In this document: positions 13,681-58,029 of the stretch, piece after piece
Numbering within the stretch: the stretch's first letter is position 1
Layout: each line of letters opens with the position of its first letter
From: Candidatus Omnitrophota bacterium
GTDB taxonomy: Bacteria; Omnitrophota; Gorgyraeia; Duberdicusellales; 4484-171
Length of the DNA: 64,000 bases
Direction: 5' to 3'
Assembly: GCA_016935525.1 (NCBI GenBank)
Contig: JAFGQU010000021.1
Span: 15,028 to 79,027 of the forward strand
Notes under the pieces: model-generated
What the model was told of the DNA's origin: nothing
Seen by the model: only the letters and a program-made list of their open reading frames with translations
Databases searched by the model: none
Position numbers and translations under genes: made by a program

Positions 13681-14193
13681 CTATTCGAATTTCCATTTCT
13701 CTTGCCTAAAAAAATCAAACCGATTAAAATACCGGATCTTATAAAAACTGCAGATATTAGGGATTCGATAGGTATTCGTTTTAAAACTCTCATCTGTAAC
13801 CACAGCACAAGAAAACTTTGATTTTCCATTAGTATACTCTCTATTCTCTCTAATCGCCAAAGCAATAACCCAAGGGTCCGCATAAGGAGGTTCTTTATCA
13901 GGGCTAGCAAAGCCAGGATGATCTTTCAAAATATCTATCATAATATCTTGTTGGATGTCGTCTACATCAATAAACATATGTTTATTATCCTTAACCCAAT
14001 CAACCAAACCATCTTCATATCTAACTAATTCATCATGTACTTCTAGTGGAGATATTAGCCGTTCCTCTTGGATCAATTTCTCAATGTTAGGCCAAATTTT
14101 AGGATAAATGTCGGCGGGATGTTGTCGATAAATATTAATCAACGCACTGCTATCAATACAATATTTAATTTTTTCTTCCTCATTGCTACTCAT
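13681..14193 (-). CDS. DUF4411-family (PIN-like) protein
   Basis: 170 aa with an N-terminal YCIDSSALIN and the conserved acidic residues typical of the PIN-like DUF4411 fold. Its start overlaps the stop of the upstream ImmA/IrrE gene by 4 nt. Confidence 0.6.
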   Translation of the reverse strand: MSSNEEEKIKYCIDSSALINIYRQHPADIYPKIWPNIEKLIQEERLISPLEVHDELVRYEDGLVDWVKDNKHMFIDVDDIQQDIMIDILKDHPGFASPDKEPPYADPWVIALAIRENREYTNGKSKFSCAVVTDESFKTNTYRIPNICSFYKIRYFNRFDFFRQEKWKFE

Positions 14194-15320: not shown

Positions 15321-15325
15321 ATTTT

Positions 15326-17943: not shown

Positions 17944-17957
17944 TTCATCTCCTGTTA

Positions 17958-18073
17958 AATAGGGTAATATTAATTTTATTTTACCCTATTTATATAACAT
18001 ATTACCCTATTTCTGTCAATAGGGTAATTATTGTCAAATATTACCCTATTTATTCATATCATTACCCCATTTT
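17958..18073. promoter_or_regulatory. Array of six copies of the decamer TTACCCTATT (4 direct, 2 inverted) upstream of hsdM
   Basis: The copies are aaatagggtaat, ttaccctattta, attaccctatttc, aatagggtaatta, attaccctattta and attaccccatttt, all in the AT-rich fic-hsdM spacer. Confidence 0.6.
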
Positions 18074-18114
18074 GGTAAGTTCAAAAATTGAATTTACTCA
18101 AATCGTCGTAAATA

Positions 18115-19155
18115 TTACACTTTTTTCCACTTGGCATTACGCCCAATTCCTGTAGATTTTATCTTTCCAGCATCTCTTAAATCTCTCAATACTTTCCTTA
18201 TCATATCGCGGGTCACATTCGGACAAGCCTTTTCTAGTTCTGAAATCGAAAATGGCTTAATAAATCTATTGATTTGGGCGATTATCTGACCTGTCTTAGA
18301 CCTCGTACGCTTAAAAACTCCAACTCTCCCTTCAAATTCTTTATATGCAGCAAGTAACATAGCATGAAAATAATCAAGCCAGGGGAATATATTGTGCTCA
18401 CCTTGATGCCAACCGTTTGAAGAAGCAATAAGAGAATCATAATAACTATCTTTCGACTCTTCAATGATTCGTTCCAAACTTATGTATTTTCCTACACGAT
18501 AACCACATTTGTATAACAATAAAAGGGTTAACAACCGCGCGATCCTCCCGTTCCCATCTTTGAATGGATGAATGCATAGAAAATCAAATATAAACAATGG
18601 GACTAGAATAAGGTGATCATGAATTTCGTCCTCAATATATTTGTTATAAAGCGTGATGGTTTTTTTCATATAATTGGACGTATCTTTTGCGGGTACCGTC
18701 TGGAAACGAATGGTTGTGCTCCCATCAGGATTCTTATCTACAATAGCGTTATCCACTTTTTTCCAAAATCCGGACTTAATAGTTGTATATCGATATAACA
18801 TTGAATGGAATTGCAATATGACATTTTCATCGAGAGGAATATTTTGGTGTGATTGATGGATAAGGTTCAATACATCTTTGTAACCAGCAATTTCTTGTTC
18901 AGGACGGTTACGGGGTTTAGTTTTTTCTTTTACAATATTCTCAATCCTTTTATGCGGTGCCGTTACACCTTCTATCCTATTGGATGCTTCTGTACTTTCT
19001 ACAATCGCACTCTCCAGTAACTTTTCTAATACATCAGGTGACTGTCGAGTATAGAGCTCTTCTTTTCCTTTATATTCTCCTAGTACATGGATTGTCTTTA
19101 ACATTTTTGAATCAAATTTCAATTTTTTTAGATATTTTGACTCTAGCGATTCCAT
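18115..19155 (-). CDS. Fic-family protein (class II, N-terminal inhibitory helix) with C-terminal winged-helix domain
   Basis: 346 aa with the Fic motif HPFKDGNGRIARLL and an upstream [ST]xxxE[GN] inhibitory motif (SNRIEG). The C-terminus is basic and DNA-binding-like. Confidence 0.85.
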   Translation of the reverse strand: MESLESKYLKKLKFDSKMLKTIHVLGEYKGKEELYTRQSPDVLEKLLESAIVESTEASNRIEGVTAPHKRIENIVKEKTKPRNRPEQEIAGYKDVLNLIHQSHQNIPLDENVILQFHSMLYRYTTIKSGFWKKVDNAIVDKNPDGSTTIRFQTVPAKDTSNYMKKTITLYNKYIEDEIHDHLILVPLFIFDFLCIHPFKDGNGRIARLLTLLLLYKCGYRVGKYISLERIIEESKDSYYDSLIASSNGWHQGEHNIFPWLDYFHAMLLAAYKEFEGRVGVFKRTRSKTGQIIAQINRFIKPFSISELEKACPNVTRDMIRKVLRDLRDAGKIKSTGIGRNAKWKKV

Positions 19156-19165
19156 TTCGATCTCC

Positions 19166-21980: not shown

Positions 21981-22706
21981 CTACATCATCCCTGCGTCAG
22001 CAAAACTGAAATGTCGGTTATCTCCTATTATTAAATGATCCAATACTTTTATCCCCATTATCTTACCTGCCTTAATCAACTCTTGATTAAAACGATTATC
22101 GTCAATGCTAGGGTTGCAATCGCCCGAAGGATGGTTATGAACACAGATGATTGCGGCAGCAAAATGCTGCAAGGCTTTCTGGAAAACCTCTCGTATAATT
22201 GGGACGGCTTTGTTAACTGTCCCTTCGGTTATTTCGATGATATCGATGACTCTGTTCTTTGAGTTCAGAAGAATGATTTTGAATACTTCTTTTTTCAGAT
22301 CACGCATGCGCGGCATGAGGATATCAACGACATCTTTTGACGATTTGATCTGAGGCCGATCTTCTTTTACCTCTGTTTCCTTAAACCTCCTGCCTATTTC
22401 TATCGCTGCCTTTATTTGAGCAATCTTAGCTTTTCCTAATCCTTTAATTTCTTCCCATTGGGCTATGTCGGTATGGGCCAGATTACGAAACCCTTTGAAT
22501 TTCTGAAGCACTTTTCGGGAAAGATCGATCGCACTTTCCCCTTTTACCCCGTTACGGATCAAGATCGCCAGCAATTCCGTATCGCTCAGGGTATGCTCTC
22601 CGTTTTTGAACAGTTTTTCCCGGGGTCTATCATCTTCCGGCCAGTTATGTATTGCGGTAGGATACTCTCTATTGCGGCTTTTATACGTAGCTTTCTCTTC
22701 CGACAT
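21981..22706 (-). CDS. radC: RadC-family JAB/MPN domain protein
   Basis: 241 aa with an HhH N-terminus and the JAMM motif HNHPSG. Confidence 0.85.
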   Translation of the reverse strand: MSEEKATYKSRNREYPTAIHNWPEDDRPREKLFKNGEHTLSDTELLAILIRNGVKGESAIDLSRKVLQKFKGFRNLAHTDIAQWEEIKGLGKAKIAQIKAAIEIGRRFKETEVKEDRPQIKSSKDVVDILMPRMRDLKKEVFKIILLNSKNRVIDIIEITEGTVNKAVPIIREVFQKALQHFAAAIICVHNHPSGDCNPSIDDNRFNQELIKAGKIMGIKVLDHLIIGDNRHFSFADAGMM

Positions 22707-30659: not shown

Positions 30660-30736
30660 TCCCCGGTAGCTCAGTCGGTATGAGCAACTGACTGTTAATC
30701 AGTGGGTCGTAGGTTCGAGCCCTACCCGGGGAGCCA
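30660..30736 (+). tRNA. tRNA-Asn (anticodon GTT), CCA encoded
   Basis: Cloverleaf: acceptor tccccgg/ccgggga, D-arm gctc/gagc, anticodon stem actga/tcagt with loop ctGTTaa, T-arm gtagg-ttcgagc-cctac, discriminator G and CCA. Confidence 0.85.
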
Positions 30737-43911: not shown

Positions 43912-44189
43912 CCGGGATATTTTTTGGCCGATATATTTTTTTATCTGGCCGGATTTCATCCGGCAATGAAACCCTTCCCCCTCCTCTGAGATCACTTATC
44001 TCAGGGATCCCGTGAGGAGAAATTCTGGCAGTACTTTTTGGCCTCTACTGACCGTTGTAGTGGGCTATACGCTGGATGCACGGTCAGCCGATTAGGGGTT
44101 CCCGGATAAATTCCGCCTTGAAAATCAAAAAAATTACAGTACAATTATACTATCTTTACCTATAAATATACCTGAATAAGAGATACACC

Positions 44190-45308
44190 ATGAACTTCCT
44201 GACTTTTACCGTAAAAGACCTTATCCGCAGAAAAATACGTTATATACTGACTCTCCTGGGCATCACGATCGGGATCGTGACCTGTATCATCATGCTCGCC
44301 TTAAGCGAAGGTATCCGTGACTCCTTTAAGGGAGCCTATATCGAACGTAACATCGATATCGTTGTCTTCGCGAAAGACGAATTCAACCTTCTGGCCAGTC
44401 GTATCGATAATTCCGTAGTCGAAGGGCTGAAAAATATCCATGAAATAGAAAACGCAACCGGCGTTATCCTGGATATCGTTAAATACCGGAAATCATACGT
44501 CCCGGTGTACGGGTGGCCCCTGGACAGCCCGATGTTCGGCGAAATAAAAATAAACGGCCGGCTCCCCCTTTCCGGACAAAGAGAAGTGTTGATCGGCGAA
44601 CTGTTTGCTCAGAATTCCGGAAAAAAAATCGGTGATACGCTGGATATCAAAAGAAAGACATTCCATATCGTAGGGATATTTCAGAGCGATATCCCGTTTG
44701 AAAAATCGGCGTTCATCGTGCCGCTGATCACCCTGCAGCGCCTGGACCGGACCTATAGGGATACGGTTGTCGCGATAAACGTCACATTAAAACCGGCCTA
44801 TCGGATAAAAGAAAAAATTGATTTGGTGACCGCCGAAATAGAGAACACGTTTCCGGAAGTCTCCGCGCAATCCAGTGATATTTTCGGGGAAGAACGTACC
44901 GAGATGATCCTGATGGGTGAAAAATTCGCTCAACTGGTGTTTTTGATCACCTTGTTCGCGGTCATCCTGGGACTCTCTAATACCATGATCACCTCGGTAT
45001 TTGAAAAAAGGAAATTGATGGGATTGTTGATGACTATCGGCTGGAAAAAAAGCGATATCATGAAATCTTTGTTCCTGCAGGCGTTCCTGTTAAGTATCGC
45101 AGGAGGGATCCTGGGAGTCACCATCGGATTCTTTACCACTCATTATATTTTTAACCAGCTCGTCATCCAGATCTTTACCCCTTCCTGGGATTACCTGTTC
45201 GTCTTTAAAGTCATCGGGACGCTTCTTGTGGTGACCGTCACCGCCAGCGTGATATCGTCATGGAGTATCGTCAATATCAATCCGATCGAGGTGATAAAAA
45301 GTGAGTAA
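44190..45308 (+). CDS. ABC transporter permease, FtsX/MacB-like (AttF/AttG-type context)
   Basis: 372 aa with an N-terminal TM, a periplasmic domain and C-terminal TMs of the FtsX fold. Confidence 0.8.
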   Translation: MNFLTFTVKDLIRRKIRYILTLLGITIGIVTCIIMLALSEGIRDSFKGAYIERNIDIVVFAKDEFNLLASRIDNSVVEGLKNIHEIENATGVILDIVKYRKSYVPVYGWPLDSPMFGEIKINGRLPLSGQREVLIGELFAQNSGKKIGDTLDIKRKTFHIVGIFQSDIPFEKSAFIVPLITLQRLDRTYRDTVVAINVTLKPAYRIKEKIDLVTAEIENTFPEVSAQSSDIFGEERTEMILMGEKFAQLVFLITLFAVILGLSNTMITSVFEKRKLMGLLMTIGWKKSDIMKSLFLQAFLLSIAGGILGVTIGFFTTHYIFNQLVIQIFTPSWDYLFVFKVIGTLLVVTVTASVISSWSIVNINPIEVIKSE

Positions 45309-45978
45309 GAAACAACCGCCGTTGCTTAATGTCGATCGAGTTTCTAAATTGTTCACGTCCGGACGTACCCAGGCGCTCAACGATATTTCGTTTAAAGCTC
45401 ATCAGGGCGAATTTCTTTCGATCTACGGCCCCTCGGGAAGCGGTAAGACCACACTGCTATATATCATCGCCGGCCTGATCCGACCGTCGAAAGGAGAGGT
45501 GTTTATCCGGGGAAAATCGTTATCGGCAATACCGAACCTGCCGTGCATGCGTCGCAAGACCATCGGGTTTATCTTTCAGGATTTTTATCTGTACCCCAGT
45601 TTTACCGTATTAGAAAATGTGTTATTACCTAACGTCAATCAGTTTACTCTCGCTAAAAAATGGGTGATAAAAGCCGAAACCCTCCTGCATCAACTGGGTA
45701 TCCACCGTAAAGCCCGCCAGAATATCAATGAACTTTCCTGCGGTGAACGGCAACGGGTATGTATTGCCCGGGCACTCCTGAACGATCCGGCCCTGATCCT
45801 TGCCGATGAACCGACGGGAAGCCTTGATTCGGAAAACTCCATCAACGTGTTGGAAATACTGCAAAAGATCAATGAACAGCGTAACACGACGATACTCATG
45901 GTGACCCATGATACCAGTGTATCAAAATACGCGCACCGGAATATCGAGATCATCGACGGAAAAATAAGGAATCCGTGA
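45301..45978 (+). CDS. ABC transporter ATP-binding protein
   Basis: 225 aa with Walker A GPSGSGKTT, the signature LSCGERQR and a Walker B ILADEPTGSLD. Confidence 0.9.
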   Translation: MSKKQPPLLNVDRVSKLFTSGRTQALNDISFKAHQGEFLSIYGPSGSGKTTLLYIIAGLIRPSKGEVFIRGKSLSAIPNLPCMRRKTIGFIFQDFYLYPSFTVLENVLLPNVNQFTLAKKWVIKAETLLHQLGIHRKARQNINELSCGERQRVCIARALLNDPALILADEPTGSLDSENSINVLEILQKINEQRNTTILMVTHDTSVSKYAHRNIEIIDGKIRNP

Positions 45979-48194
45979 TCATGGAGTATCTCCCGGTCCA
46001 GAACCATATTCGACATACCCCACACAAAAAATCTTACCTCAACGACGAATCACCTCATTTTGATCGAACCGTTGAATGGTGGTTTGTTCAAGGATACTAT
46101 GGATCATCCGGTTTTGGCCGCAGAGATTTCATGGTCAGCTTTTTTCGGCAAAAGGTACCGCAAGACGTAAAAGAGATCGACGGCGATATCTTTCATGTCG
46201 TCATCGCCATATACGATCCGGTACGAAAAGAGTGCCGTCGTAAGATGATCGCCCATAAAAAAGCTCTCGAATCTATGGCTCGTTATGGACCAAAACAGAA
46301 TAAAACCGTCGATTCTTCCCTAGTACGTGCGTATCTCAATGAAATCCTTACCTACGGGCCGGCGGCGGATATCGTGATATCTGAAACCCCCGTGACGATT
46401 TCGGGGACACCGCTTACCTACCGTTGGGATGGATTTGAGCTGGTCCAAAAAGACGGTACGTTCCTGTTGTATTTTCCCGATCTTTTTACCGGGATCCGAT
46501 GCGGGCTTGAGCTGACCCCCGGTTATGCTTCTCTTGATCTAAAACAGATGAATGTCACTAATTCCGATGATATGGCGTATCGCTGTTATCCCCGGATGGA
46601 TGTCCGGGGAACTGACGGAAAAGAACAATTGCGCGGAGAAGCCTGGTTTGATCATCAGTTTGGAGAATATCAGGATACGTTCCTTACGCAAAAAAACGAA
46701 CATGTATTAGGATGGGATTGGATCGCGTTAAACCTTGATGACGGGACTGACGGTATTTTTATGGCTCATCGGGAGATGAATACCGGTATGATAAAAAATA
46801 TCAGTTTAGTCCTCAAAAAATCCGGTGAAGAAGCGGTCTTGTTTAAAGAAGTCCAAGCGACACCTCTTGGTTACTGGGAAAGCCCGAAAACTCATATTGT
46901 CTGGCCGGTAAAATGGCGGATCGAGGTCCCTTCATCCAATATCGATTTTACATTCACACCGGCTTACGATGACCAGGAGATCATGTATCTAGGCCTGATG
47001 CGGGCGATCTGGGAAGGAAGCGGGAACATAACCGGGTCGTTTTCCGGAATCCATATCCAGGGCCGCGGACGGTTAGAACTGTACGGGTACGGATATATTA
47101 CCGATATTAAAAATTATATGGACCATTTTATCAAACGGTTTGACCGGCATATCGAAGAATTTTTCCCGCAAAATATCGATGAAGACTGGTTATGCCGATA
47201 TCTGGGTAAACCGCTGTGGCAACATGATCCCCAGGCGTACCGGTCGGTCCTCACCCGGCCGGTATGGGACCTGATGCAACGTAAAGGAAAACACTGGCGG
47301 ACGGTTTTTGGCGTTTTGTTCCTCGATTCATTAGGATACCCTTCGGGTAAATATGAAGCGTTACTTGCTACCGCTTTGGAACTGAACCATACCGGCGCGT
47401 TAATCATCGATGATATCGAAGATAATTCGTTACTGCGTCGCGGGGATACCTCTATCCATCTTAAATACGGAACCGACATCGCGATCAATGCCGGTAATAC
47501 CCTCTATTTTTTACCGTATGTACAGTTATGGGATCATCCTCATCTCGACCAGGACCAGAAATACGAACTGTACCGGATCATGGTAAAAGTATGGACTCGA
47601 TCGCATTTCGGTCAGGGTGCCGATATTTACTGGTCGAGGAATCTTTCCCGGGAAAACCTGGACGCGTGGCTTGCCGATTCTCTGCCGGAGAAGATCCTTC
47701 AGATGTATTCTTACAAGACTGCCGCGGCCGTAGAAGGAGTCGGAGAATCCGTATGCGTGATCGCCCGGACGGATGACGCGACTAAAGAAGCCTATATGTC
47801 GTTAGGCCGTATCTTCGGTACGGCTTTTCAGATCATCGATGATATTAATAATTTTAACGATTCTAAAGAGTGGCGTAAGACCTGCGGCGAAGATCTCGCG
47901 CGCGGGAAACTCACCTACGTCATCGTCCAGGCCTTGACTCTTCTGGATGCTGAAAAACGGAAACGGTTGACCGATATCCTCCTTTCGGAAACAGAACGTA
48001 CCTCGCCCGATTCGTTTGCTGAAGGGATCAGACTTATTCGGACCTCGGGCGCTCTGGAATTATGCCGTACCCAGGCGCAAAAGATGATCGAAGACCAATG
48101 GAAACAATTTTCTCGCCATGCCGATCCTTCCGACGCAAAGACCATGATCAGAATGCTTATCTGGAGACTCACCAACATCGTCTATGAAAGCTGA
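45975..48194 (+). CDS. Fusion protein: AttH/CrtC-like lipocalin-type domain (N) plus trans-polyprenyl diphosphate synthase (C)
   Basis: The N-terminus has EWWFVQGYYG (EWWY-type motif of CrtC/AttH). The C-terminus has the first DDxxD DDIEDNSLLRRG, the second DDxxN IIDDINNFND, and GKxTY. Confidence 0.65.
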   Translation: MIMEYLPVQNHIRHTPHKKSYLNDESPHFDRTVEWWFVQGYYGSSGFGRRDFMVSFFRQKVPQDVKEIDGDIFHVVIAIYDPVRKECRRKMIAHKKALESMARYGPKQNKTVDSSLVRAYLNEILTYGPAADIVISETPVTISGTPLTYRWDGFELVQKDGTFLLYFPDLFTGIRCGLELTPGYASLDLKQMNVTNSDDMAYRCYPRMDVRGTDGKEQLRGEAWFDHQFGEYQDTFLTQKNEHVLGWDWIALNLDDGTDGIFMAHREMNTGMIKNISLVLKKSGEEAVLFKEVQATPLGYWESPKTHIVWPVKWRIEVPSSNIDFTFTPAYDDQEIMYLGLMRAIWEGSGNITGSFSGIHIQGRGRLELYGYGYITDIKNYMDHFIKRFDRHIEEFFPQNIDEDWLCRYLGKPLWQHDPQAYRSVLTRPVWDLMQRKGKHWRTVFGVLFLDSLGYPSGKYEALLATALELNHTGALIIDDIEDNSLLRRGDTSIHLKYGTDIAINAGNTLYFLPYVQLWDHPHLDQDQKYELYRIMVKVWTRSHFGQGADIYWSRNLSRENLDAWLADSLPEKILQMYSYKTAAAVEGVGESVCVIARTDDATKEAYMSLGRIFGTAFQIIDDINNFNDSKEWRKTCGEDLARGKLTYVIVQALTLLDAEKRKRLTDILLSETERTSPDSFAEGIRLIRTSGALELCRTQAQKMIEDQWKQFSRHADPSDAKTMIRMLIWRLTNIVYES

Positions 48195-49446
48195 CCTCAA
48201 AAACCGCGTACTCATCGTCGGCGGCGGACCGGCAGGGATGATGGCGGCGATCGCCGCGGGAAACAGTACCGATAACGTACTGTTGATCGAACAAAACTCC
48301 TCCTGCGGAAAAAAACTGCTGGTATCGGGTAACGGCCGATGCAATTTTACCAATGCCCGTGATATCCGTTCGTTTCCCGAGCATTTCGCACACGGCGGCA
48401 CATTTTTGCGTGACGCGTTCAATACGTTTTCTAACCGTGACCTTATCGATTTCTTCAAAAACCGCGGGTTATCTTCTCATTGCGAAGAAGACCAAAAGGT
48501 GTTTCCGGTGAGTGACAATGCCGGTGATGTTCTTAACGTATTATTGAAAGAACTGAAAAAGAAAAAAGTAAAGATCCTCTACAATACTGCTCTTGAGAAA
48601 ATACTGCTCTCTGAGAACGCAGTCGAAGGGATACGCCTTTCAAAAAAAGAAATCATCCCCGGCCGCACACTTATCCTTGCGACCGGCGGGATAAGTTATC
48701 CGCATACCGGCTCAGACGGATGTGGATTACGTATCGCCAAAACGCTTCCCCATACCGTCACCCCGCTTCTGGCCGGACTCACCTCGATCCAGAGCGCTCA
48801 AGAATACATCAGACACCTGGAAGGTATTTCGTTAAGAGGAGTAGTCCTTACCTTGCATATCGCCAAGAAAAAGCTGAAATCGCAAAAAGGCGATATTATG
48901 TTTACCCGAAACGGCCTTTCCGGGCCGCTGGCGATGTCGTATAGTTCAAAGATCGCATTAGCAGTGTATGAGCACCGGAACATAAGGATATCGATCGACC
49001 TGTTTCCCGATATGACCAACGAAATGCTCCATCAGACCCTTAAAGACCATTGGCAGGCTCATTCCCGGAAAAACCTCACCAATTCTTTATCCGCTTTTGT
49101 GCCGGAACGGTTTGCTCATACGTTACTTAACATACACAGGATCGATACCGGAAAAACGGTAAGCTATATGACAAAACGCGAACGTACCATTATTACGGGT
49201 TTTTTAAAAAATCTTACGCTCGACATCACCGGATGCGGCCCGGTTGAAAAAGCTATGGTCACCCGCGGCGGGATATCGTTAAAAGAAGTCGATCCCCGGT
49301 CGATGGCCTCGCGGATCATCAAAGGATTATATTTTGCCGGGGAAATGCTGGATATCGACGGTGATACCGGCGGATTTAACCTGCAAGCCGCGTTTTCTAC
49401 CGGATATCTGGCCGGAATACATGCGGCAGGTGAGAAACGAAAATAA
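48184..49446 (+). CDS. HI0933/BaiN-family FAD-dependent flavoprotein
   Basis: 420 aa with an N-terminal GGGPAGMMAAI dinucleotide fold and a C-terminal GGFNLQAAFSTGYLAG. Confidence 0.8.
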   Translation: MKADLKNRVLIVGGGPAGMMAAIAAGNSTDNVLLIEQNSSCGKKLLVSGNGRCNFTNARDIRSFPEHFAHGGTFLRDAFNTFSNRDLIDFFKNRGLSSHCEEDQKVFPVSDNAGDVLNVLLKELKKKKVKILYNTALEKILLSENAVEGIRLSKKEIIPGRTLILATGGISYPHTGSDGCGLRIAKTLPHTVTPLLAGLTSIQSAQEYIRHLEGISLRGVVLTLHIAKKKLKSQKGDIMFTRNGLSGPLAMSYSSKIALAVYEHRNIRISIDLFPDMTNEMLHQTLKDHWQAHSRKNLTNSLSAFVPERFAHTLLNIHRIDTGKTVSYMTKRERTIITGFLKNLTLDITGCGPVEKAMVTRGGISLKEVDPRSMASRIIKGLYFAGEMLDIDGDTGGFNLQAAFSTGYLAGIHAAGEKRK

Positions 49447-49502
49447 ATAATTTTCTTCATAAATAAAGGATATTTAGGTAGAATAATAAAAGGCCTGTAC
49501 AC

Positions 49503-49529
49503 CGCCCGGATAAGGGCGGTTTGTTTTTC
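49503..49529 (+). terminator. Intrinsic terminator
   Basis: Hairpin ccgccc-ggataa-gggcgg followed by tttgttttt. Confidence 0.75.
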
Positions 49530-49556: not shown

Positions 49557-50534
49557 GTGCAACCACCTAAAATATACGGGGTCAGCATCTGGTTAGTCGT
49601 CACCCTGGCGATAAGCCTCTTTGTCTTCCTTATCGGGAAACTCATACCTTCCCCGCTCCTTGACCCTTTACTGGTAGCTCTGACGTTAGGGATTATCCTG
49701 CGGTTACTGATCAAATTCAATGATACCTCTCTGGCTCAATTACGTATGGCTCCGGCGTTCCTTATTCCTCCGGGCGTGATCCTCTATGGAGCGGTAAACC
49801 TGAATTTCAGTAAATTAACTCCGCTTGACCCCAATTTCATCTTTTTGATCTTCATTGTATTTCTTATTTATACCATCTCTTGTCTGATGTTTTCGCGTCT
49901 GTTACGCCTAAACGAGCGTACCGGATACCTGATCACTACCGGCTCGACCATCTGCGGCGCCTCCGCCATCACTATTACCTCGCGCGGTATCGATGCTGAA
50001 CCGGAAGAAATCTCGTTAAGCCTTATTCCGATATTTATTGCGGCACTCATCGGTTTGTTTTTTATCATGCCGAACGTAAAAATCATGATGGGCCTTTCCC
50101 CTACCGAATACGGAGTATTTGCCGGAACGGTATTACAGTTTACCGGATTTGTAAAAGCAGCCGTAGCCGATTTGCCCGGCGAAGTTCAAAATATCGCGAT
50201 GTCGGTAAAAGCCGTCCGGTACGTGGGGCTTTTGTTTATGATCCCGCTGTTTGCCAGCATCATAAAAGGGAAACCGTATGTCCCGATGGTCCTCTGGTTT
50301 TTTCTCGGTGCCGGTCTATTATTCTCTTTTTTCCCAACCCTGACGGCGGCCGTAAAACCTTTTTTCAAGACTCTTCTTAACATATTGTGGAGTATGGCGA
50401 TGGCGGCGATCGGTTTAAACGCAAATGCGAAAAAGATATTTTCCCGGGAAGGGTTAAAAGCATTGATAGTAAGCCTTCTGTCATTTTTTATCGCAACCAG
50501 CGTATTTTTAACCGGGATTTTAATACTTAAATAA
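49557..50534 (+). CDS. Polytopic membrane protein, possibly YeiH/UPF0324-type exporter
   Basis: 325 aa with about 10 TMs; family assignment is tentative. Confidence 0.35.
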   Translation: MQPPKIYGVSIWLVVTLAISLFVFLIGKLIPSPLLDPLLVALTLGIILRLLIKFNDTSLAQLRMAPAFLIPPGVILYGAVNLNFSKLTPLDPNFIFLIFIVFLIYTISCLMFSRLLRLNERTGYLITTGSTICGASAITITSRGIDAEPEEISLSLIPIFIAALIGLFFIMPNVKIMMGLSPTEYGVFAGTVLQFTGFVKAAVADLPGEVQNIAMSVKAVRYVGLLFMIPLFASIIKGKPYVPMVLWFFLGAGLLFSFFPTLTAAVKPFFKTLLNILWSMAMAAIGLNANAKKIFSREGLKALIVSLLSFFIATSVFLTGILILK

Positions 50535-50549
50535 ACACGGAATAATACC

Positions 50550-52538
50550 ATGAAAATAGGGTTACGCGTTATCCTGGGGATACTGGCGATTGTCCTGACA
50601 ATCCTGATCTCATCGTTTCTTTCGGTAAATATCAGTGAAAAGGCATTACAGGATTTTATCGGCCATGAGGCAATATCGAAAACCCAGGAGGCACTTGAAA
50701 CGATAGATGATACGATCCTCATCCGCATAGAAGAAGTCGATTTTTTTGCTCACGCTATCTCCTCTCATCCGATACTTGCCGAATCAAACAGATATTTCGA
50801 TACCCACCCGAATCTTGCTAAATACATACAGGAAAAAGATAAAGAATGGATATCTCTGCCTAAAGAAGCCATTACTCCTTTCATAAAAGAAATCGTCGGC
50901 AACCCCCTCTCCCAACAGATACGATGGCGACTGCAGGAAACCCATCCTCAAGAAAAGATATTTGCCGAGGTATTCATCACTAATAAATACGGGGTGAATG
51001 TCGCACAATCGACGAAAACGACCGATTATTATCAGGGTGACGAACTATGGTGGCAACAAGCTAAAGAAACCGGCAGGCATATTGCCGATCTGCAGTTTGA
51101 CGAAAGCAGCGAACAATATGCTATTACTATCGCATCGCGGATCGACGACCAAAACGGAAATTTTGCCGGCGTGATAAAAGCATTACTCACCGTAGATGAA
51201 ATCACTAACCTTATCCAGAAAAATATATTACGGGCACGTGAACAGGTATTGATGACTTTGATCACAAAAGAAGGCAAGATCATTTACTCTTCCGAAGGAT
51301 ACAAACCTTTTCGTGACGTTTCCGATCTCCTTACTTTAAAAAGACAATCGGGTGCCGGAAAAAAATTCCTGATCGTCGAAGACGAAGAAGGGCAAAAAAG
51401 CAAAGGATTTCTGGCCTGGGCCGAATCAGAAGGTTCCCATGAGTTTCCCGGATTTCAATGGATCTTATTCTCGCAATATGAGACGAATACTCTTTTTGCT
51501 CCGATCAAAAGGCTGAAGATCACTCTGCTTACGATCACTCTTTTAGTCACGTTCATCTCGATCATCATCGGGTTCAGTATTTCTTATTCGGTATCTTCCC
51601 CGATCAACAAACTGACCGGGATCGCCCAAAATCTCAGCGAGGGAAGGTTAACCGTAGCGATACCCGACGACCTGAAAAACCTCACCGATGAGATCGGCCA
51701 ATTCGCCAAAGTATTCGATTCAATGCGCCAACGACTTAAAATCACGTACGATAGCCTGGAAAAAAAAGTAAAAGAACGTACTGCCGATCTGGAAAATAAA
51801 ACCTTCCAATTGGAAAAGACTAAAAAAGAACTGGAACGGTCAAATAAAGATCTGGAACAATTCGCGTATGTCGCCTCTCACGACCTCCAGGAACCGTTAA
51901 GAAAGATCATCGCGTTCGGAGACCTGTTCCAGGAAGAAATGGGTAGAAATATCTCGGAAAACGCAAAAGACTATCTCCACCGCATGCAGAATGCGGCTTA
52001 TCGTATGCGTAACCTTATCGAAGGATTACTACAATATTCCCGGCTGAACACCCGGGCATTGCCTTTTGAAGAAGTCGATCTGGAAAAAATCGTCCAAGAT
52101 GTCCTTGGTACTCTGGAATTGACTATTCAGGAAACTGGTGCTACCATTGAGGTCGGGTATCTTCCCCGGATGAAAGCCGATCAGCTGCAGATGGAACAAC
52201 TGTTTCAGAATCTCATCATGAACGCCCTGAAATTCCGTAAACCCGGTCAAAAACCGCGTATTACTATTACCAGCTGGCCGGCACAGATCGGGTGGGTACA
52301 GATCGCCATCCAGGATAACGGTATCGGATTTGACGAAAAATATACCGAACGGATATTTTATCCTTTTCAACGCCTGCATAAATCAGGAGAATTTGAAGGG
52401 GCAGGTATCGGCCTTTCTATATGTAAAAAAATAGTCGAACGTCATGGCGGACAGATCAGCGTCAAGAGTAACCCTCAGGAAGGCAGCACTTTTATTATCC
52501 ATCTGCCTACCCATGAAATCGAAAGGAGTCAAAAATGA
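50550..52538 (+). CDS. Sensor histidine kinase (periplasmic Cache-like domain, HAMP, HisKA, HATPase)
   Basis: 662 aa with two TMs flanking a sensor domain, the H-box VASHDLQEPLR and the G boxes. Confidence 0.85.
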   Translation: MKIGLRVILGILAIVLTILISSFLSVNISEKALQDFIGHEAISKTQEALETIDDTILIRIEEVDFFAHAISSHPILAESNRYFDTHPNLAKYIQEKDKEWISLPKEAITPFIKEIVGNPLSQQIRWRLQETHPQEKIFAEVFITNKYGVNVAQSTKTTDYYQGDELWWQQAKETGRHIADLQFDESSEQYAITIASRIDDQNGNFAGVIKALLTVDEITNLIQKNILRAREQVLMTLITKEGKIIYSSEGYKPFRDVSDLLTLKRQSGAGKKFLIVEDEEGQKSKGFLAWAESEGSHEFPGFQWILFSQYETNTLFAPIKRLKITLLTITLLVTFISIIIGFSISYSVSSPINKLTGIAQNLSEGRLTVAIPDDLKNLTDEIGQFAKVFDSMRQRLKITYDSLEKKVKERTADLENKTFQLEKTKKELERSNKDLEQFAYVASHDLQEPLRKIIAFGDLFQEEMGRNISENAKDYLHRMQNAAYRMRNLIEGLLQYSRLNTRALPFEEVDLEKIVQDVLGTLELTIQETGATIEVGYLPRMKADQLQMEQLFQNLIMNALKFRKPGQKPRITITSWPAQIGWVQIAIQDNGIGFDEKYTERIFYPFQRLHKSGEFEGAGIGLSICKKIVERHGGQISVKSNPQEGSTFIIHLPTHEIERSQK

Positions 52539-52981
52539 TCGAATCCGAAAGAAAAACAATCTCTATTCTAATCGCTGATGATGATGACGATGATGTAATG
52601 CTGGTCACTAAAGCATTGAAAGAGTACCGTTTCCTAAACGACCTTCAACGCGTGCGGGACGGTGAAGAACTTCTGGATTACCTGTTCCATCGTGGGAACT
52701 ATACCGATGCCGATAAATTTCCATTACCAAACCTTATCCTTTTGGATTTAAATATGCCCCGTAAAGACGGACGGGAAGCGTTGAAAGAGATCAAAGATCA
52801 TCATGAACTCCGTAAGATCCCGGTAATCATCCTTACGACTTCGAAAACCGACGAAGATATCGTACGTTCTTACGATTTAGGGGTAAATTCTTTTGTGACC
52901 AAACCGGTAGAATTCAAAGATTTTATGGAAGTAATCAAAAATATCGGCACCTACTGGCTTGAGATAGTCCAGCTTCCTTAA
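52535..52981 (+). CDS. Response regulator, receiver-only (CheY-like)
   Basis: 148 aa with ADDDDDD...DLNMP (phospho-Asp) ...ILTTS. Confidence 0.8.
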   Translation: MIESERKTISILIADDDDDDVMLVTKALKEYRFLNDLQRVRDGEELLDYLFHRGNYTDADKFPLPNLILLDLNMPRKDGREALKEIKDHHELRKIPVIILTTSKTDEDIVRSYDLGVNSFVTKPVEFKDFMEVIKNIGTYWLEIVQLP

Positions 52982-54207: not shown

Positions 54208-54594
54208 ATGATCATGCGAATATTCCTTTTACTATCAATACTGATATCTCTTCTGGGGTGCGAGCTCATTCAGAGAGAGTCCCCGGCATATATGGTCATC
54301 GAAATAGCCGTCCATGATAAAAACATGTATGCCCAATATATCGAGGAAGTCTACCCCATCGTAAAAAAATACGGCGGGACATATCTTGTCCGCACCGAAA
54401 ACGTAGCCCCTATTACCGGCAATTGGCACCCTGAACGCATCATCATACTGAGATTCAAATCGATAACCGCTCTCCAGCGATGTTTTCAATCCGCGGAATA
54501 TACACGGATATCTCATCTGCGGGAAGATTCAACGACCTCAAAGGCGATTATTGTTGACGGTTATCCGTCTCTTAAACCGGTAGGCGCACCATGA
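54208..54594 (+). CDS. DUF1330-family protein (with N-terminal lipoprotein-type leader)
   Basis: 128 aa with the core MVIEIAVHD...YGGTYLVR...IIILRF...AIIVDG. Confidence 0.6.
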   Translation: MIMRIFLLLSILISLLGCELIQRESPAYMVIEIAVHDKNMYAQYIEEVYPIVKKYGGTYLVRTENVAPITGNWHPERIIILRFKSITALQRCFQSAEYTRISHLREDSTTSKAIIVDGYPSLKPVGAP

Positions 54595-55283
54595 AAAAAG
54601 ATTTGATCCGGGTTCGCCGGATCATGTTAACACGGTTGGTAGGCGGTTTTTTTCTGGTCTTCAGCCTGCTTTTTTTATGTGCCGGCCGGATCGATTATTG
54701 GCAGGGATGGGGGTTGGTCCTGGTGAGCGCGGCATTATTAGCGAGAACCTGTTTTTTAATAAAAGACAAATATACTCTTTTGCAGGAACGGGTCGAGCCC
54801 GGATCGGGCATGAAATGGTGGGATAAAATATTCCTATTGTTGTTTATTCTTTCTTTTTTGAGCGTTATCGCACTGGCCGGCCTGGAGAGCGGCCGGTTCC
54901 ACCGGACCGGCGCTTTGCCTGGGCTGATCTACCCATTAGGATATCTGCTTTTATTTCTGTCGCACTACGTGACCATATCGGCAATGTGTGCTAACGATTA
55001 TTTTTCAAGCATCGTACGTATACAAAAAGACAGAGATCACAAGGTCATCCAGGAGGGCCTTTACGGAATAATCCGTCATCCCGGTTATAGCGGCGGGATC
55101 CTGTTGGGATTCGCTGTCGCGTTCATGTTAGGTTCGAGATATGCGCTTATCCCGGCGTCGACCATGGCTTTACTGCTTATCGTACGTACTTATTTAGAAG
55201 AGATCACTCTCGAAAAAAATCTACCGGGATATACCGAATACACAAAAAAAGTAAAATACCGCATTGTTCCCGGACTCTGGTAA
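54591..55283 (+). CDS. Isoprenylcysteine carboxyl methyltransferase (ICMT/PEMT)-family membrane methyltransferase
   Basis: 230 aa with multiple TMs and a C-terminal GLYGIIRHPGYSG. Confidence 0.7.
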   Translation: MKKDLIRVRRIMLTRLVGGFFLVFSLLFLCAGRIDYWQGWGLVLVSAALLARTCFLIKDKYTLLQERVEPGSGMKWWDKIFLLLFILSFLSVIALAGLESGRFHRTGALPGLIYPLGYLLLFLSHYVTISAMCANDYFSSIVRIQKDRDHKVIQEGLYGIIRHPGYSGGILLGFAVAFMLGSRYALIPASTMALLLIVRTYLEEITLEKNLPGYTEYTKKVKYRIVPGLW

Positions 55284-55330
55284 AAAAGGGTTTTGACAAT
55301 AGCGTCGAATACAGGTATACCTATACTATT

Positions 55331-56107
55331 ATGGATTTTAAAGACGTCGCCATACACGCTGCCCGGGAAGCCGGAAGCGTCCATGAAAAATATTTTCAGA
55401 AAGATTTTTCTGTAACAGAGAAGACTTCTTCGTTCGATCTGGTGACTGTTGCCGACGTGGAAGCAGAACAGACAATAGTCTCACTTATCAAAAAACAGTA
55501 TCCCGACCATAATTTCCTCTGTGAAGAACAAAAATACGAAAAAACCGCATCACCGTACACCTGGATCATCGACCCTCTAGACGGGACAAACAATTTCTCA
55601 TCGGGGTTGCCGATTTTCTGTGTATCGATCGCTTTGATGGCCCATGACGAGATCATTCTCGGGACGATATACGATGTGACCCGTGACGAACTTTTCTTTG
55701 CCGAAAAAGGAAAAGGCTCTTTTCTTAACGATATTCCGATCAGAGTAAATGAAACCGCCGAACTCCAAAGGTCACTGTTGATCACGGGTTTTTATTATAA
55801 CCGCGGAGAAGAAATGATCGAGACCCTGGAAAACATAAAAAGTTTTTTTAAAAAACCTATTTTGGGGTTACGACGTCTGGGAGCCGCCGCGCTCGACCTT
55901 TGTTATGTCGCATCCGGGCGGGCCGCGGGATTTTGGGAATTTGAATTAAACCCCTGGGATTTTGCTGCCGGTAAACTCATTATCGAAGAAGCTCACGGCA
56001 AGATAACCGATAAGTATGGACAGACGGTCGATGCCGGAAAAAAATCATATATAGTCGCGTCGAACGGAAAAATCCACTCGCAGATGATAAAAATACTGAA
56101 AAGATAA
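55331..56107 (+). CDS. Inositol monophosphatase-family protein (SuhB-like)
   Basis: 258 aa with the metal-binding motifs EEQ and WIIDPLDGTNNF. Confidence 0.85.
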   Translation: MDFKDVAIHAAREAGSVHEKYFQKDFSVTEKTSSFDLVTVADVEAEQTIVSLIKKQYPDHNFLCEEQKYEKTASPYTWIIDPLDGTNNFSSGLPIFCVSIALMAHDEIILGTIYDVTRDELFFAEKGKGSFLNDIPIRVNETAELQRSLLITGFYYNRGEEMIETLENIKSFFKKPILGLRRLGAAALDLCYVASGRAAGFWEFELNPWDFAAGKLIIEEAHGKITDKYGQTVDAGKKSYIVASNGKIHSQMIKILKR

Positions 56108-56116
56108 TATCCCTCC

Positions 56117-57226
56117 ATGAAGATATTAATGCCTTTAAACCCCACTGACAATATTGATATATTGATAAAAGGGGGTGCCGACGAGTTCTATTGCGGGTTT
56201 ATCCCGCCTGAGAGCAAAAATACTTATGTGAATATCCTTACCGAATATGAAAATAATGATTTTACTACCATAGAAGAATTAAAGAATAAAGCTGACATAA
56301 TTCATTCCTATGGAAAAAAAATATTTGTTGTATTGAATTTTCAGTATTATACCGAAGCTTTTTTAGAAATTCTATTATCTACAATCGAAAAATTGAATGA
56401 ACTGCCTATCGACGCGTTCATTTTAAGCGACCTGGGGTTGATCACTCAAGTCCGCGTTCGTTTTCCGGAAATAGAAGTCCACTTATCTACCGTAACCGGC
56501 GCATTCAACACCTACGCCCTACGTTTTTTCCAGGATCTGGGAGTTACCCGGATCGTATTGCCTGACCATTTAAATAACGATGAGATCGCAGCCCTTACCC
56601 AACATGCCCCAAAAATGCAACTGGAAATATTTGTAATGAACAATCGCTGCATTCATCTTGAATGCCTATGCCGGTTCCACCATTGGCAAAAAGGGCAACC
56701 CCACCCCGCACCTTCATCTCTTTCACGTACAACCCTGGGCCATATCAAACGTATCCTCAGGCAATTTCCCCACAAAATATTAGGGTTATTATTCAATAAT
56801 CCGGTTATCAAAAAAGTATTCGAGAATATTCTCAATCAGACAAGAGACCTGCATGGATGCCGTCTTCCCTTTGATGTTTCTCCGCTCAATCTTCCGGCAA
56901 CTCGCGAACGTATTCAGAAAGCTCAAGAATTAGAAAGATATTTCGGACCATTCCATGTGTTTATGCGCTATCCTCCATGCGGCGCCTGCACCTTATATCG
57001 GGCCTGGCACCAGGGCATAGACGTGTTTAAAATAGACGGGAGGTTCAATCCGTTCAGCAAAAAACTCAAAGACCTGCGTTTTATCATAGAATGCGCCGGG
57101 TTCCTCGCTCAGGCAAAAGATGAAAAGGAATTTATTGTATTCTGTAAAAATCGCTTTAAAAAAATATTCGGACATCGTTGTACTCACGAACAATGTTATG
57201 ATCTGAATATCTGGATACAGAATTAA
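56117..57226 (+). CDS. Peptidase-U32-family protein (UbiU/RlhA/TrhP-type putative O2-independent hydroxylase component)
   Basis: 369 aa with the N-terminal U32 TIM-barrel signature (PLNP...GGADEFYCGF) and the Cys clusters CIHLECLC and PPCGAC. Confidence 0.65.
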   Translation: MKILMPLNPTDNIDILIKGGADEFYCGFIPPESKNTYVNILTEYENNDFTTIEELKNKADIIHSYGKKIFVVLNFQYYTEAFLEILLSTIEKLNELPIDAFILSDLGLITQVRVRFPEIEVHLSTVTGAFNTYALRFFQDLGVTRIVLPDHLNNDEIAALTQHAPKMQLEIFVMNNRCIHLECLCRFHHWQKGQPHPAPSSLSRTTLGHIKRILRQFPHKILGLLFNNPVIKKVFENILNQTRDLHGCRLPFDVSPLNLPATRERIQKAQELERYFGPFHVFMRYPPCGACTLYRAWHQGIDVFKIDGRFNPFSKKLKDLRFIIECAGFLAQAKDEKEFIVFCKNRFKKIFGHRCTHEQCYDLNIWIQN

Positions 57227-58029
57227 TGGAACACGCTTATTATCTCACTCACACAGAAAACCTTCAGGACATAGATTTGGAAAATTTTCACCGTATCTAT
57301 TACGGAGCGGAATTTTGCGAATATCTTCTTCCCCGGTGGGAAGAAATAGAGAAAGCGCTCGATTTCTGTAATGAGCAAAAAAAAACATTCAGTTTTCTCA
57401 CCCCTATTGTGTCCGCTTATGGGATAGATGTGTTGATTCCGATATTTAAACGACTCAACACCTACAGTACTACTCATAATAGAAAGGTCGAAGTCATTGT
57501 AAACGATTTAGGGATATTATCCCTCCTTAAAGAATATTCATCGTTAGGAAAAGTAATCGGCCGGCTGCTCAGCAAACAGAGAACCGATCCTCGTATTGTA
57601 CGCTATCAGGATGATTTCACCGAAAGTCAATTGGATACACTGTCTCATTCACAATTTTCAAAAAGTTTCTGCGCCGCCCTTAAGGAATACAATATCATCC
57701 GTATCGAACTAGATAATCCTTTCCAGGGAATAGCCGATAGTTTTATACAGAATGGATTAGGCGTTTCTCTTTACTACCCTCTGGTTTCGATCGCGACGAC
57801 CCGGTTATGCCTTTTCAATATCAATGAGACCTATCACCTGCCCGAAATCAAAGAATGCAAAAAGAAGTCATGTAAGGCTCTGGGCACTTTCCGGCTCACC
57901 CACTCGACCCTTCCTGTTCCAATATTATTACAAGGGAACGCCCAACTGTATGAAAACAAGTCTTTACCTCCTGAATTAGAAAAAAAGGGTATCGATCGTC
58001 TTATCCATAACATTGGAATAGTTACTTGA
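57226..58029 (+). CDS. Second peptidase-U32-like paralogue (UbiV-like partner)
   Basis: 267 aa with the U32-like N-terminus FHRIYYGAEFCEYL. Its start overlaps the upstream stop (ATGA-type overlap). Confidence 0.5.
   Translation: MEHAYYLTHTENLQDIDLENFHRIYYGAEFCEYLLPRWEEIEKALDFCNEQKKTFSFLTPIVSAYGIDVLIPIFKRLNTYSTTHNRKVEVIVNDLGILSLLKEYSSLGKVIGRLLSKQRTDPRIVRYQDDFTESQLDTLSHSQFSKSFCAALKEYNIIRIELDNPFQGIADSFIQNGLGVSLYYPLVSIATTRLCLFNINETYHLPEIKECKKKSCKALGTFRLTHSTLPVPILLQGNAQLYENKSLPPELEKKGIDRLIHNIGIVT

Follow-up and report, generated by a model that had tools for sequence, protein, structure and literature searches.

The window analysed here is a stretch of 64,000 nucleotides from a Candidatus Omnitrophota bacterium (contig JAFGQU010000021.1, positions 15,028 to 79,027). 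Its plus strand carries at 44190-49446 a block of four tightly packed open reading frames (ORFs), the third of which joins a lipocalin-like domain of the AttH/CrtC type to a trans-isoprenyl diphosphate synthase in a single protein. The block opens with an FtsX/MacB-type (type VII) ATP-binding cassette (ABC) permease of 372 aa (44190-45308; Pfam MacB_PCD 2.1e-19, FtsX 1.4e-16). It continues with a LolD/FtsE/MacB-like ABC ATPase of 225 aa that starts at a GTG codon (45301-45978; ABC_tran 3.4e-35), the fusion gene (45981-48194) and a flavin adenine dinucleotide (FAD) flavoprotein of the HI0933/BaiN family (48184-49446, 420 aa; HI0933_like 1.9e-82). An initial annotation, made from the sequence without database searches, had listed the same four genes; ORF reading confirms their order and coordinates, and the Pfam profile scan that it had proposed as a check returns the domain identities assigned to the permease, the ATPase, both halves of the fusion and the flavoprotein.

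The whole block had been described as translationally coupled through overlapping stop and start codons. This stands for two of the junctions, where the TAA of the permease gene overlaps the GTG of the ATPase gene by 8 nt and the TGA of the fusion gene overlaps the ATG of the flavoprotein gene by 11 nt. Between the ATPase and the fusion, a 4-nt GTGA overlap exists only if translation of the fusion begins at GTG 45975, which gives a protein of 739 aa, instead of ATG 45981, which gives 737 aa. The Shine-Dalgarno-like AAGGAA at 45966-45971, which precedes this ATG by 9 nt, is better placed for it, NCBI likewise calls the start at ATG 45981 (737 aa; P0001) and the nearest homologue begins with MEY. 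The real junction is therefore probably a 2-nt gap, with the genes still tightly coupled. Residue numbers of the fusion protein are counted throughout from GTG 45975, that is, on the 739-aa version.

The fusion ORF is continuous with no stop between its halves and matches three Pfam families, CrtC (1.8e-6, residues 197-230 only), Lipocalin_9 (8.5e-23, residues 244-372) and polyprenyl_synt (6.6e-48, residues 425-674). A protein search with the fusion returned at least 166 clusters at E<=1e-5, and among the best 120 nearly all are ~700-830 aa long and contain the same three domains, with more than 100 same-length homologues at 35-59% identity. At the protein level the window agrees completely (100% identity) with a 'Candidatus Omnitrophica' metagenome-assembled genome. 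The initial annotation had named a missed stop codon between two separate genes as a possible objection; given the continuous ORF and the many homologous clusters of equal length it is virtually certain that the fusion is one real protein. An AlphaFold2 model built from an alignment of 104 fusion-family sequences has a mean predicted local distance difference test (pLDDT) value of 92 and a predicted template-modelling score (pTM) of 0.91. A pTM of this size over 739 residues implies that the two halves would be held in a fixed mutual arrangement.

The fusion had further been called unusual, which is wrong if rarity is meant. When one genome per GTDB species was scanned, at least 310 confirmed fusion-family loci came to light in many bacterial phyla and in Methanomicrobiales, and most of the 80 loci that were fetched from among these are full-length fusions. 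Carriers include Aminicenantes, Acidobacteriota, Ignavibacteria/Melioribacteraceae, Balneolaceae, Bacteroidales, Verrucomicrobiota, Planctomycetota (including Scalindua), Desulfobacterota, Alpha- and Gammaproteobacteria and several Methanomicrobiales (Methanoregula, Methanoculleus), with Bauldia litoralis ATCC 35022 and Desulfatitalea alkaliphila as cultured examples. A more distant clade with the same architecture and 22-29% identity occurs in Legionella quateirensis, Streptomyces and myxobacteria. A literature search found no description of an AttH/CrtC-prenyl synthase fusion, an absence that is not proof of unpublished status, and the family appears to be uncharacterised.

The archaeal copies are full-length fusions at 35-47% identity in eight loci from Methanoregula, Methanoculleus and Methanogenium (L016, L019, L028, L030, L031, L035, L054, L057), and three of these eight have a gene similar to phosphoenolpyruvate-utilising enzymes or pyruvate phosphate dikinase directly upstream of the fusion. 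Their presence there implies transfer between domains of life. About a dozen of the lowest-ranked fetched loci (L069, L071-L076, L078-L080) are stand-alone synthases, mostly from DPANN archaea and Bathyarchaeota, which match residues ~373-735 only at 30-35% identity. They are the nearest stand-alone relatives of the synthase half, which suggests that this half may be of archaeal-type origin.

The N-terminal half (46032-47099, plus strand; residues ~20-375) is an AttH/CrtC-type double beta-barrel domain of lipocalin-like character and a putative isoprenoid C=C hydratase. Its match to Lipocalin_9 (PF17186) reaches 81.4 bits against a cut-off of 26.2, while CrtC (PF07143) scores 29.2 bits against 22.5 and aligns over 34 residues only, so that the first barrel is judged to be divergent. 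The strand pattern predicted over residues 33-370 would form two orthogonal lipocalin-like barrels. The initial annotation had allowed that this half might lack the AttH/CrtC fold, and Foldseek matches exactly that fold. The 'putative AttH' protein NE1406 (2ICH) is found with a template-modelling (TM) score of 0.76 and a sequence E-value of 6e-16, and kievitone hydratase (7A0Q) with a TM score of 0.70; the AttH protein of Agrobacterium aligns with 24% identity (E=2e-13).

The catalytic residues of this fold have been studied in the CrtC protein of R. gelatinosus (RgCrtC), where mutagenesis showed D268 to be essential as proton donor and W110, W283 and W285 to be essential for stabilisation of the carbocation (PMC12402844). 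RgCrtC also hydrates the terminal double bond of C13-C20 terpenoids (PMC12402844). More recently an AttH-like protein has been identified in a preprint as the hydroxy-glycerol dialkyl glycerol tetraether (hydroxy-GDGT) synthase Hgs, the third AttH-like hydratase to be characterised. The same preprint states that the AttH-like proteins CrtC, kievitone hydratase and Hgs alike turn isoprene double bonds into tertiary alcohols by hydration (bioRxiv 10.1101/2025.10.20.683597). Residues were mapped with the CrtC encoded beside crtD on the photosynthesis plasmid of Roseobacter litoralis standing in for RgCrtC. Its segments GEGYFDANFG and, 15 residues on, YWTWGRF align with GEAWFDHQFG and LGWDWIAL of the fusion, and the D-to-W spacing of 15 in the R. 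litoralis protein agrees with the RgCrtC numbering.

By this alignment the proton donor D268 corresponds to D226 in the AWFDHQ motif (46641-46658), and the cation-pi residues W283 and W285 correspond to W247 and W249 in the GWDW motif (46710-46721). Conservation was counted here and below over the alignment of 104 fusion-family sequences, in which D226 is retained in all but one (103/104) and both Trp residues in every sequence (104/104 each). The N-terminal signature had been described as of the EWWY type; the motif is indeed present at 46074-46085 and its letters read EWWF. Its W36 is invariant (104/104), stands in one of only six columns invariant across the fusion, AttH and CrtC, and is tentatively mapped as the likely counterpart of W110. 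Further invariant residues are H227, Q334, E335, W346, E368 and W224 (104/104). Conservation of this kind points to a site in the N-terminal half that is catalytic or, at the least, highly specific, and the chances that the domain is a catalytic hydratase appear evenly poised.

The C-terminal half (47247-48179, plus strand; residues ~425-735) is a trans-isoprenyl diphosphate synthase domain of the type III, eukaryote-like geranylgeranyl diphosphate (GGPP) synthase type. Its match to PF00348 polyprenyl_synt scores 163.5 bits against a cut-off of 27, with residues 425-674 covering profile positions 3-239 of 251. The DDIEDN and DDINNF motifs reported earlier are both in place, the one within LIIDDIEDNSLLRRG at 47400-47444 and the other within FQIIDDINNF at 47826-47855. 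The first Asp-rich motif, DDIED (47409-47423; D479, D480, D483), contains no insertion and has small residues at positions -4 and -5 (A475, G474), and the second, DDINN (47838-47852), is of the DDxxN form seen in the human and yeast GGPP synthases (GGPPS). D479, D480, D483, R488, R489, R442, H472, K581, Q619, D623 and K645 are conserved in all 104 sequences and K439 in 103 of them; at position 622, 88 sequences have D and the other 16 have N. A conserved insertion of ~9 residues after DIYW, which includes W565, is specific to the fusion family. Foldseek places the domain in the all-alpha isoprenoid synthase fold, with target-normalised TM scores of 0.80-0.90 to archaeal, bacterial, yeast and human GGPPS. 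The nearest solved relatives are human and yeast GGPPS, solanesyl diphosphate synthases and the prenyltransferase domains of fungal bifunctional terpene synthases (8V0F, 6V0K, 9E2H).

To judge chain length, the domain was aligned with yeast GGPPS (2DH4; a tag shifts its chain numbering by +5 from the native one). Y511 and F512 (47505-47510) fall on yeast Tyr107 and Phe108, and H544 (47604-47606) on His139, the three residues at which the elongation pocket of the yeast enzyme is closed at C20. Y511 and H544 are invariant (104/104 each), F512 is kept in 96 and G474 in 101 of the sequences, and position 475 is A, T or S. It is very probable that the synthase half is active. From the motif-level match to type III GGPPS and the coincidence of Y511, F512 and H544 with the yeast pocket residues, GGPP is predicted as its product, and a C20 chain is on balance favoured. 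A long-chain synthase (C30 or longer) was considered on account of the small -4/-5 residues and the matches to solanesyl diphosphate synthases, and was dropped after the motif-level alignments to GGPPS.

The fusion is free of hydrophobic segments along its whole length, and all 104 homologues lack one at the N-terminus. Because there is no signal peptide and a diphosphate synthase needs cytosolic isopentenyl diphosphate (IPP) and Mg2+, the whole protein, barrel included, is by its sequence cytoplasmic.

The permease encoded at the head of the block has four predicted transmembrane segments (near residues 19-37, 249-267, 290-308 and 337-355), with a periplasmic MacB_PCD domain of ~210 residues between the first and the second, and has a separate cognate ATPase. 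The best NCBIfam match of the ATPase is LolD, which is below its cut-off, as is every equivalog score. The window operon contains no gene for a membrane-fusion protein, TolC or a LolA-like protein; an HlyD gene is present in locus L013, and a periplasmic partner for the window pair could be encoded at another place in the genome. Close homologues of the permease are few. Among 5.8 billion proteins only three were found, at 73%, 53% and 51% identity, and genome loci add others at 72%, 47% and 46%. All six permeases of at least 46% identity whose neighbourhood can be read (the window, L005, L083, L086, L001 and L010) lie beside a fusion gene, a count that omits the 73% cluster P0122 on its 4.2-kb contig. 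The link between fusion and exporter suggested in the initial annotation is thus borne out for this lineage, in which the ABC pair is likely to be functionally coupled to the fusion. A looser association of FtsX or ABC genes with the fusion is seen in L013, L017 and L048.

The next permease relatives, at 26-29% identity, have mixed contexts, two of them (L087, L088) lying in lipid clusters and a third (L089) not. The clusters of L087 and L088 (26-28%) comprise genes for a fatty-acid desaturase, an ABC ATPase, an FtsX permease and a LolA-like (TP_0789-like) protein, to which L087 adds a polyketide synthase and a condensation-domain protein, and this gene content has the look of a distinct, uncharacterised system for making and exporting lipids. 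The permease may accordingly belong to a lipid-export ABC lineage of which one subclade is dedicated to the fusion. Transporters of the MacB/LolCDE class take their substrates from the outer leaflet or the periplasm. Direct cytoplasmic hand-off of a lipid into such a machine would therefore be awkward, and extraction of a flipped, membrane-embedded lipid would be the more natural reading.

Across the family as a whole, 417 neighbouring ORFs from 54 full-length loci were clustered and 90 immediate neighbours were scanned against Pfam; the resulting counts are lower bounds, the fusion ORF not having been recovered in 12 loci, mostly fragments or synthase-only matches. In this survey there is no universally conserved partner gene, the four-gene block of the window is not conserved, most loci have no informative neighbour and the biggest groups of immediate neighbours are HAE3/MMPL (4) and FtsX (3). 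The HAE3-family proteins of the resistance-nodulation-division/MMPL type, which show sterol-sensing-domain similarity and are relatives of HpnN and BstA, transporters of hopanoids and sterols, lie on the same strand beside the fusion in L002, L004, L023 and L037. The Legionella fusion has AcrB and HlyD genes upstream.

In six loci (L020, L021 at 10151-10888, L024, L043, L044 and L045), which come from Thermoanaerobaculia, Bacteroidales, Gammaproteobacteria and Syntrophaceae, the strand that carries the fusion also encodes a polytopic membrane protein of ~235-260 aa. Its gene lies within about 25 nt of the fusion in five of these and 778 nt away in L020. Its match to Pfam Lycopene_cyc is sub-threshold (24.1 bits against 27) and no NCBIfam family matches. 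In L085, a metagenome contig (7001-11207), a fusion of 44% identity overlaps by 38 nt a downstream gene for a 675-aa protein resembling squalene and oxidosqualene cyclases, which scores well below the hopene-cyclase cut-off and may be a divergent class II terpene cyclase. A distant fusion copy of 747 aa is also found in L082 (locus 5261-9202), on the 269-kb linear plasmid NZ_CP109336.1 of Streptomyces canus, where it is annotated only as 'polyprenyl synthetase family protein' and lies divergent from an ABC-2-type transporter pair.

Sugar- and sulfate-transferring enzymes also appear beside the fusion. L058 has a GT28-like glycosyltransferase gene upstream of the fusion and a hydroxymethylglutaryl-CoA (HMG-CoA) synthase gene downstream, and L066 has a GT4 gene upstream. 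In L064, a Polyangiaceae metagenome-assembled genome (MAG), a single ORF of 1,509 aa (5112-9641) combines a sulfotransferase, a GT1-type (GT28-N/EryCIII-like) glycosyltransferase and the CrtC/Lipocalin_9/polyprenyl_synt arrangement, with a sulfatase gene upstream and a methyltransferase gene downstream; this ORF may reflect a frameshift or misassembly in the MAG. Taken as it stands, the architecture of L064 hints that the product would carry a hydroxyl group that is glycosylated or sulfated. The common thread of the informative neighbours appears to be isoprenoid tailoring, hydroxyl decoration and lipid export. Together the glycosyl- and sulfotransferases (L064, L058, L066), the HMG-CoA synthase of L058, the squalene-hopene cyclase (SHC)-like gene of L085 and the lycopene-cyclase-like neighbours in six loci hint at a hydroxylated terpenoid as the product.

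The last gene of the block stands apart from this picture. Its product matches TIGR00275 with 441.6 bits against a cut-off of 183.8 and HI0933_like with 276.8 bits, and has the FAD-binding Rossmann motif VGGGPAG near its N-terminus. The initial annotation had supposed that it might reduce or modify the isoprenoid. Members of its family are known as C=C reductases in the case of BaiN, the gene overlaps that of the fusion by 11 nt both here and in L005, and there is no terminator ahead of it and a good one behind. These points would favour a genuine third step in which the flavoprotein reduces or oxidises the isoprenoid made by the fusion, and yet such a role is unlikely. Only the window and L005 have the gene after the fusion; it is missing from L083, whose fusion is 58% identical, and from every other fusion locus examined. 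The family is ubiquitous, with more than 7,600 clusters at E<=1e-60 forming a smooth continuum of identity. Relatives at 50-52% identity, nearly as close as the copy in L005 (54%), lie beside BipA, Maf, HIT or FtsJ genes, and none of those examined has isoprenoid or ABC genes nearby. After this reciprocal comparison of contexts the flavoprotein was downgraded as a pathway reductase, and it is somewhat more plausibly seen as a housekeeping gene captured by the operon, a bystander.

The four genes are predicted to form one transcription unit, bracketed by a promoter-like site and a terminator-like hairpin. The former, TTGAAA-16-TACAAT at 44118-44145 (plus strand), agrees with the consensus at 10 of 12 positions and lies inside the 278-nt gap upstream of the operon; it is a consensus match only, and such sites are no commoner in the region than expected from shuffled sequence. 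The latter, at 49501-49520 (plus strand) after the flavoprotein gene, has a stem of 7 bp (6 GC) followed by the T-run TTGTTTTT and probably marks the 3' end of the operon. A regulatory RNA upstream of the operon was considered and rejected, as an Rfam scan at gathering thresholds gave no element near the operon and only one tRNA (30660-30733) in the window.

Drawing these observations together, the fusion may be proposed to act as a bifunctional GGPP synthase and isoprenoid hydratase that feeds a lipid exporter. The C-terminal domain would condense IPP with allylic diphosphates up to C20 (GGPP). D226 of the docked barrel would then donate a proton to a trisubstituted isoprene double bond, either in the C20 chain or in a direct derivative of it, with W36, W247 and W249 steadying the carbocation until capture of water gives a tertiary alcohol. 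The hydroxylated, amphipathic C20 lipid would partition into the inner membrane, from which, in this lineage, a homodimeric MacB/LolCDE-type machine formed by the upstream pair would pull it toward the periplasm or outer membrane. No chemistry other than hydration is known for the family (CrtC, kievitone hydratase and hydroxy-GDGT synthase). Taken as a whole chain, this proposal has slightly less than an even chance of being right.

Several points weigh against it. The Asp and Trp motifs are also kept in AttH proteins of unknown function, so that their conservation is no proof of catalysis, and the mapping of W36 onto W110 depends on one alignment column. A chain-length prediction from three residues is fallible, with F512 varying in 8 of the 104 sequences and D622 replaced by N in 16. 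A lipid made in the cytoplasm must flip before it can be exported, and the operon encodes no adaptor or LolA-like partner. About two thirds of the family loci have neither a transporter nor a terpenoid neighbour, from which it follows that the exporter is not intrinsic to the function of the enzyme. The overlap of the flavoprotein gene with the fusion, retained in L005, could reflect a real functional link.

The most serious competing explanation is that the lipocalin domain is a non-catalytic lipid chaperone that passes the unmodified product of the synthase to the membrane or exporter, much as the initial annotation had envisaged a passive hand-off. Lipid binding is common among lipocalin-like folds, and the authors of the NE1406 structure proposed lipid binding and transport and pointed out that AttH-like proteins are associated with ABC transporters (PMC2954199). 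The fusion is itself linked to exporters in several lineages. A near-invariant buried acidic residue and three Trp at the catalytic positions of CrtC nevertheless exceed the needs of binding, and the conservation of these counterparts makes hand-off less likely than catalysis. Release of a C20 diphosphate, moreover, normally needs no carrier, MacB-type permeases load from the periplasmic side so that their usual entry site is out of reach for a cytoplasmic carrier, and the characterised members of the family are all enzymes (bioRxiv 10.1101/2025.10.20.683597). We consider a chaperone role doubtful, if deserving of attention.

Rather than being added to a linear chain, the proton donated by the barrel might start a ring closure, which would make the N-terminal domain a protonation-initiated terpene cyclase, the prokaryotic counterpart of the fungal prenyltransferase-cyclase chimeras, with a cyclic C20 product. 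In CrtC, Asp protonates a terminal C=C and Trp residues give cation-pi stabilisation (PMC12402844). Class II cyclases begin with the same step. Fungal bifunctional terpene synthases supply, in their prenyltransferase domains, the closest match to the synthase half, and the neighbours of the cyclase type (the lycopene-cyclase-like proteins and the SHC-like gene) could be read in the same direction. Separate cyclase genes beside the fusion suggest instead that other proteins carry out any cyclisation, and the glycosyl- and sulfotransferase partners fit a free hydroxyl better. We know of no AttH/CrtC family member shown to cyclise isoprenoids, and this explanation is accordingly held to be improbable. 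Still further from expectation, and highly improbable, is a role of the barrel as a regulatory lipid sensor that allosterically tunes the GGPP synthase to the lipid status of the membrane. Rigid packing of the two domains in the model (pTM 0.91) would permit such coupling, and regulatory ligand sites at the domain interface were a speculation of the NE1406 paper (PMC2954199). The catalytic-type Asp/Trp set and the terpenoid-tailoring and export neighbours point instead to a pathway enzyme. A regulatory sensor role is to our knowledge without precedent in the AttH/CrtC family.

Outside the block, the genes upstream of the operon encode Rex, SerC and SerA, and those downstream encode a YeiH-family membrane protein followed by a histidine kinase/response regulator pair. 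The YeiH-family gene (in the region 49557-52981 of the window) lies past the terminator-like hairpin and is treated as a separate unit; it recurs in L005 at 64% identity, 1.4 kb past the 3' end of the fusion. On the minus strand, a low-GC island at 14190-21955 (GC ~0.35 against ~0.46 in the flanks) contains a type I restriction-modification system composed of HsdR (19166-21955), HsdM (16432-17943) and HsdS (15326-16435), together with a Fic-domain gene (18115-19155) and an IrrE/helix-turn-helix-type gene (14190-15320), and is adjoined by RadC (21981-22706). The whole is probably a defence island gained by horizontal transfer. On the plus strand, a run of genes at 54591-58029 encodes a membrane methyltransferase of the ICMT/PEMT family (54591-55283), an inositol monophosphatase (55331-56107), a peptidase-U32 protein (56117-57226) and a 267-aa ORF with no Pfam match (57226-58029), and for these genes no link to the isoprenoid operon was established.

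The bifunctional synthase-hydratase proposal has wider consequences if it is correct. The fusion family is large and ancient, and is spread over many phyla of mostly uncultured anaerobes as well as methanogens. It is a tentative suggestion, and one that we hold less firmly than the proposal for the protein itself, that the fusion defines a new and widespread class of prokaryotic 'assembly-line' terpenoid enzymes that make hydroxylated and possibly cyclised C20 lipids, which are tailored and exported lineage by lineage. Depending on the lineage, they would be decorated with sugar or sulfate or cyclised further, and export to the envelope would fall to whatever lipid pump that lineage has taken into service. 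Under the hydratase interpretation the product would be a hydroxylated C20 isoprenoid that nobody has looked for, with a bearing on membrane biology and on the assignment of biomarkers. Lipids of this kind from anaerobic bacteria (Omnitrophota, Aminicenantes, Desulfobacterota, Acidobacteriota, Verrucomicrobiota) and Methanomicrobiales could be an unassigned source of sedimentary isoprenoid biomarkers. The few known prenyltransferase fusions would gain a member whose catalytic partner is a beta-barrel, and the enzyme would be a naturally channelled, cofactor-free terminal alkene hydratase of interest for biocatalysis. The reciprocal, subclade-specific pairing with a MacB-type ABC pair offers a handle on the transport of small isoprenoid lipids, and three cultured carriers, Bauldia litoralis ATCC 35022, Desulfatitalea alkaliphila and Legionella quateirensis, make the fusion tractable.

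Both halves of the fusion belong to known kinds of enzyme. What appears to be unstudied is their combination, together with how widely it occurs, its location in the cytoplasm and the varying lipid exporters and tailoring enzymes that go with it. The initial annotation had described the block as AttFGH-like, and it does resemble AttEFGH of Agrobacterium in that genes for an FtsX-type permease and a LolD-like ATPase accompany the one for an AttH-like domain. In the att locus of pAtC58-type plasmids, however, an ATPase of 219 aa is followed by a permease of 802 aa with two FtsX domains and then by a secreted AttH of 354 aa, whereas the order in the window is permease, ATPase, fusion. The Agrobacterium permease, with its duplicated FtsX domain, is YbbP-like, and that of the window has 372 aa and a single FtsX domain and is only marginally similar to it (BLASTP E=0.025). 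Only the ATPase resembles its counterpart AttE (34% identity, E=2e-38), at a level that is generic for the subfamily. AttH begins with MNVKRILLLCALSLPAPAVAVGQ, a typical signal peptide, and is not joined to a synthase, so that the AttH-like domain of the fusion lies on the opposite side of the membrane. Judged on gene order, permease architecture and signal peptide, the module of the window shares superfamilies with the Att system but is not a member of it.

As regards the exporter, the pair shares with the MacB/LolCDE (type VII) systems a four-segment FtsX permease with a periplasmic MacB_PCD domain and a separate LolD-like ATPase, but all NCBIfam equivalog scores are far below their cut-offs and the operon of the window supplies no partner gene. 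The synthase half compares best with the type III GGPPS of yeast (Bts1, 2DH4) and human (GGPS1, 2Q80), with which it has in common the motifs LIIDDIEDNS.LRRG, IN..N..YFL, H.GQG.DIYW, FQI.DD..N and EDL..GK, a first Asp-rich motif free of insertions and the Tyr, Phe and His of the pocket floor. It differs from them in being prokaryotic, in its identity of only ~25%, in the ~9-residue insertion and in an N-terminal extension of 420 residues. The fungal chimeric prenyltransferase-terpene cyclases (PvCPS 8V0F, variediene synthase 9E2H and fusicoccadiene synthase) likewise couple a domain of the GGPP-synthase type to one that transforms the chain, but their partner is an alpha-helical class I/II cyclase, whereas here it is a beta-barrel of the AttH/CrtC fold in bacterial and archaeal hosts.

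The N-terminal half, finally, shares with AttH and NE1406 (2ICH) the motifs EWW, AW.D, GWDW, WEG and GRG.LE..GY. With CrtC and the AttH-like hydratases (kievitone hydratase 7A0Q and Hgs) it has in common the double beta-barrel fold, the matches to CrtC and Lipocalin_9 and the catalytic Asp with its W.W pair, and enzymes of this type act on isoprenoid substrates, as is proposed for the fusion. Unlike CrtC, to which it is ~19% identical, the fusion is a soluble cytoplasmic protein with no membrane anchor that is joined to the enzyme making the chain, and where the substrates of CrtC-type hydratases are a C40 carotenoid or a tetraether, that of the fusion is likely to be a C20 chain.

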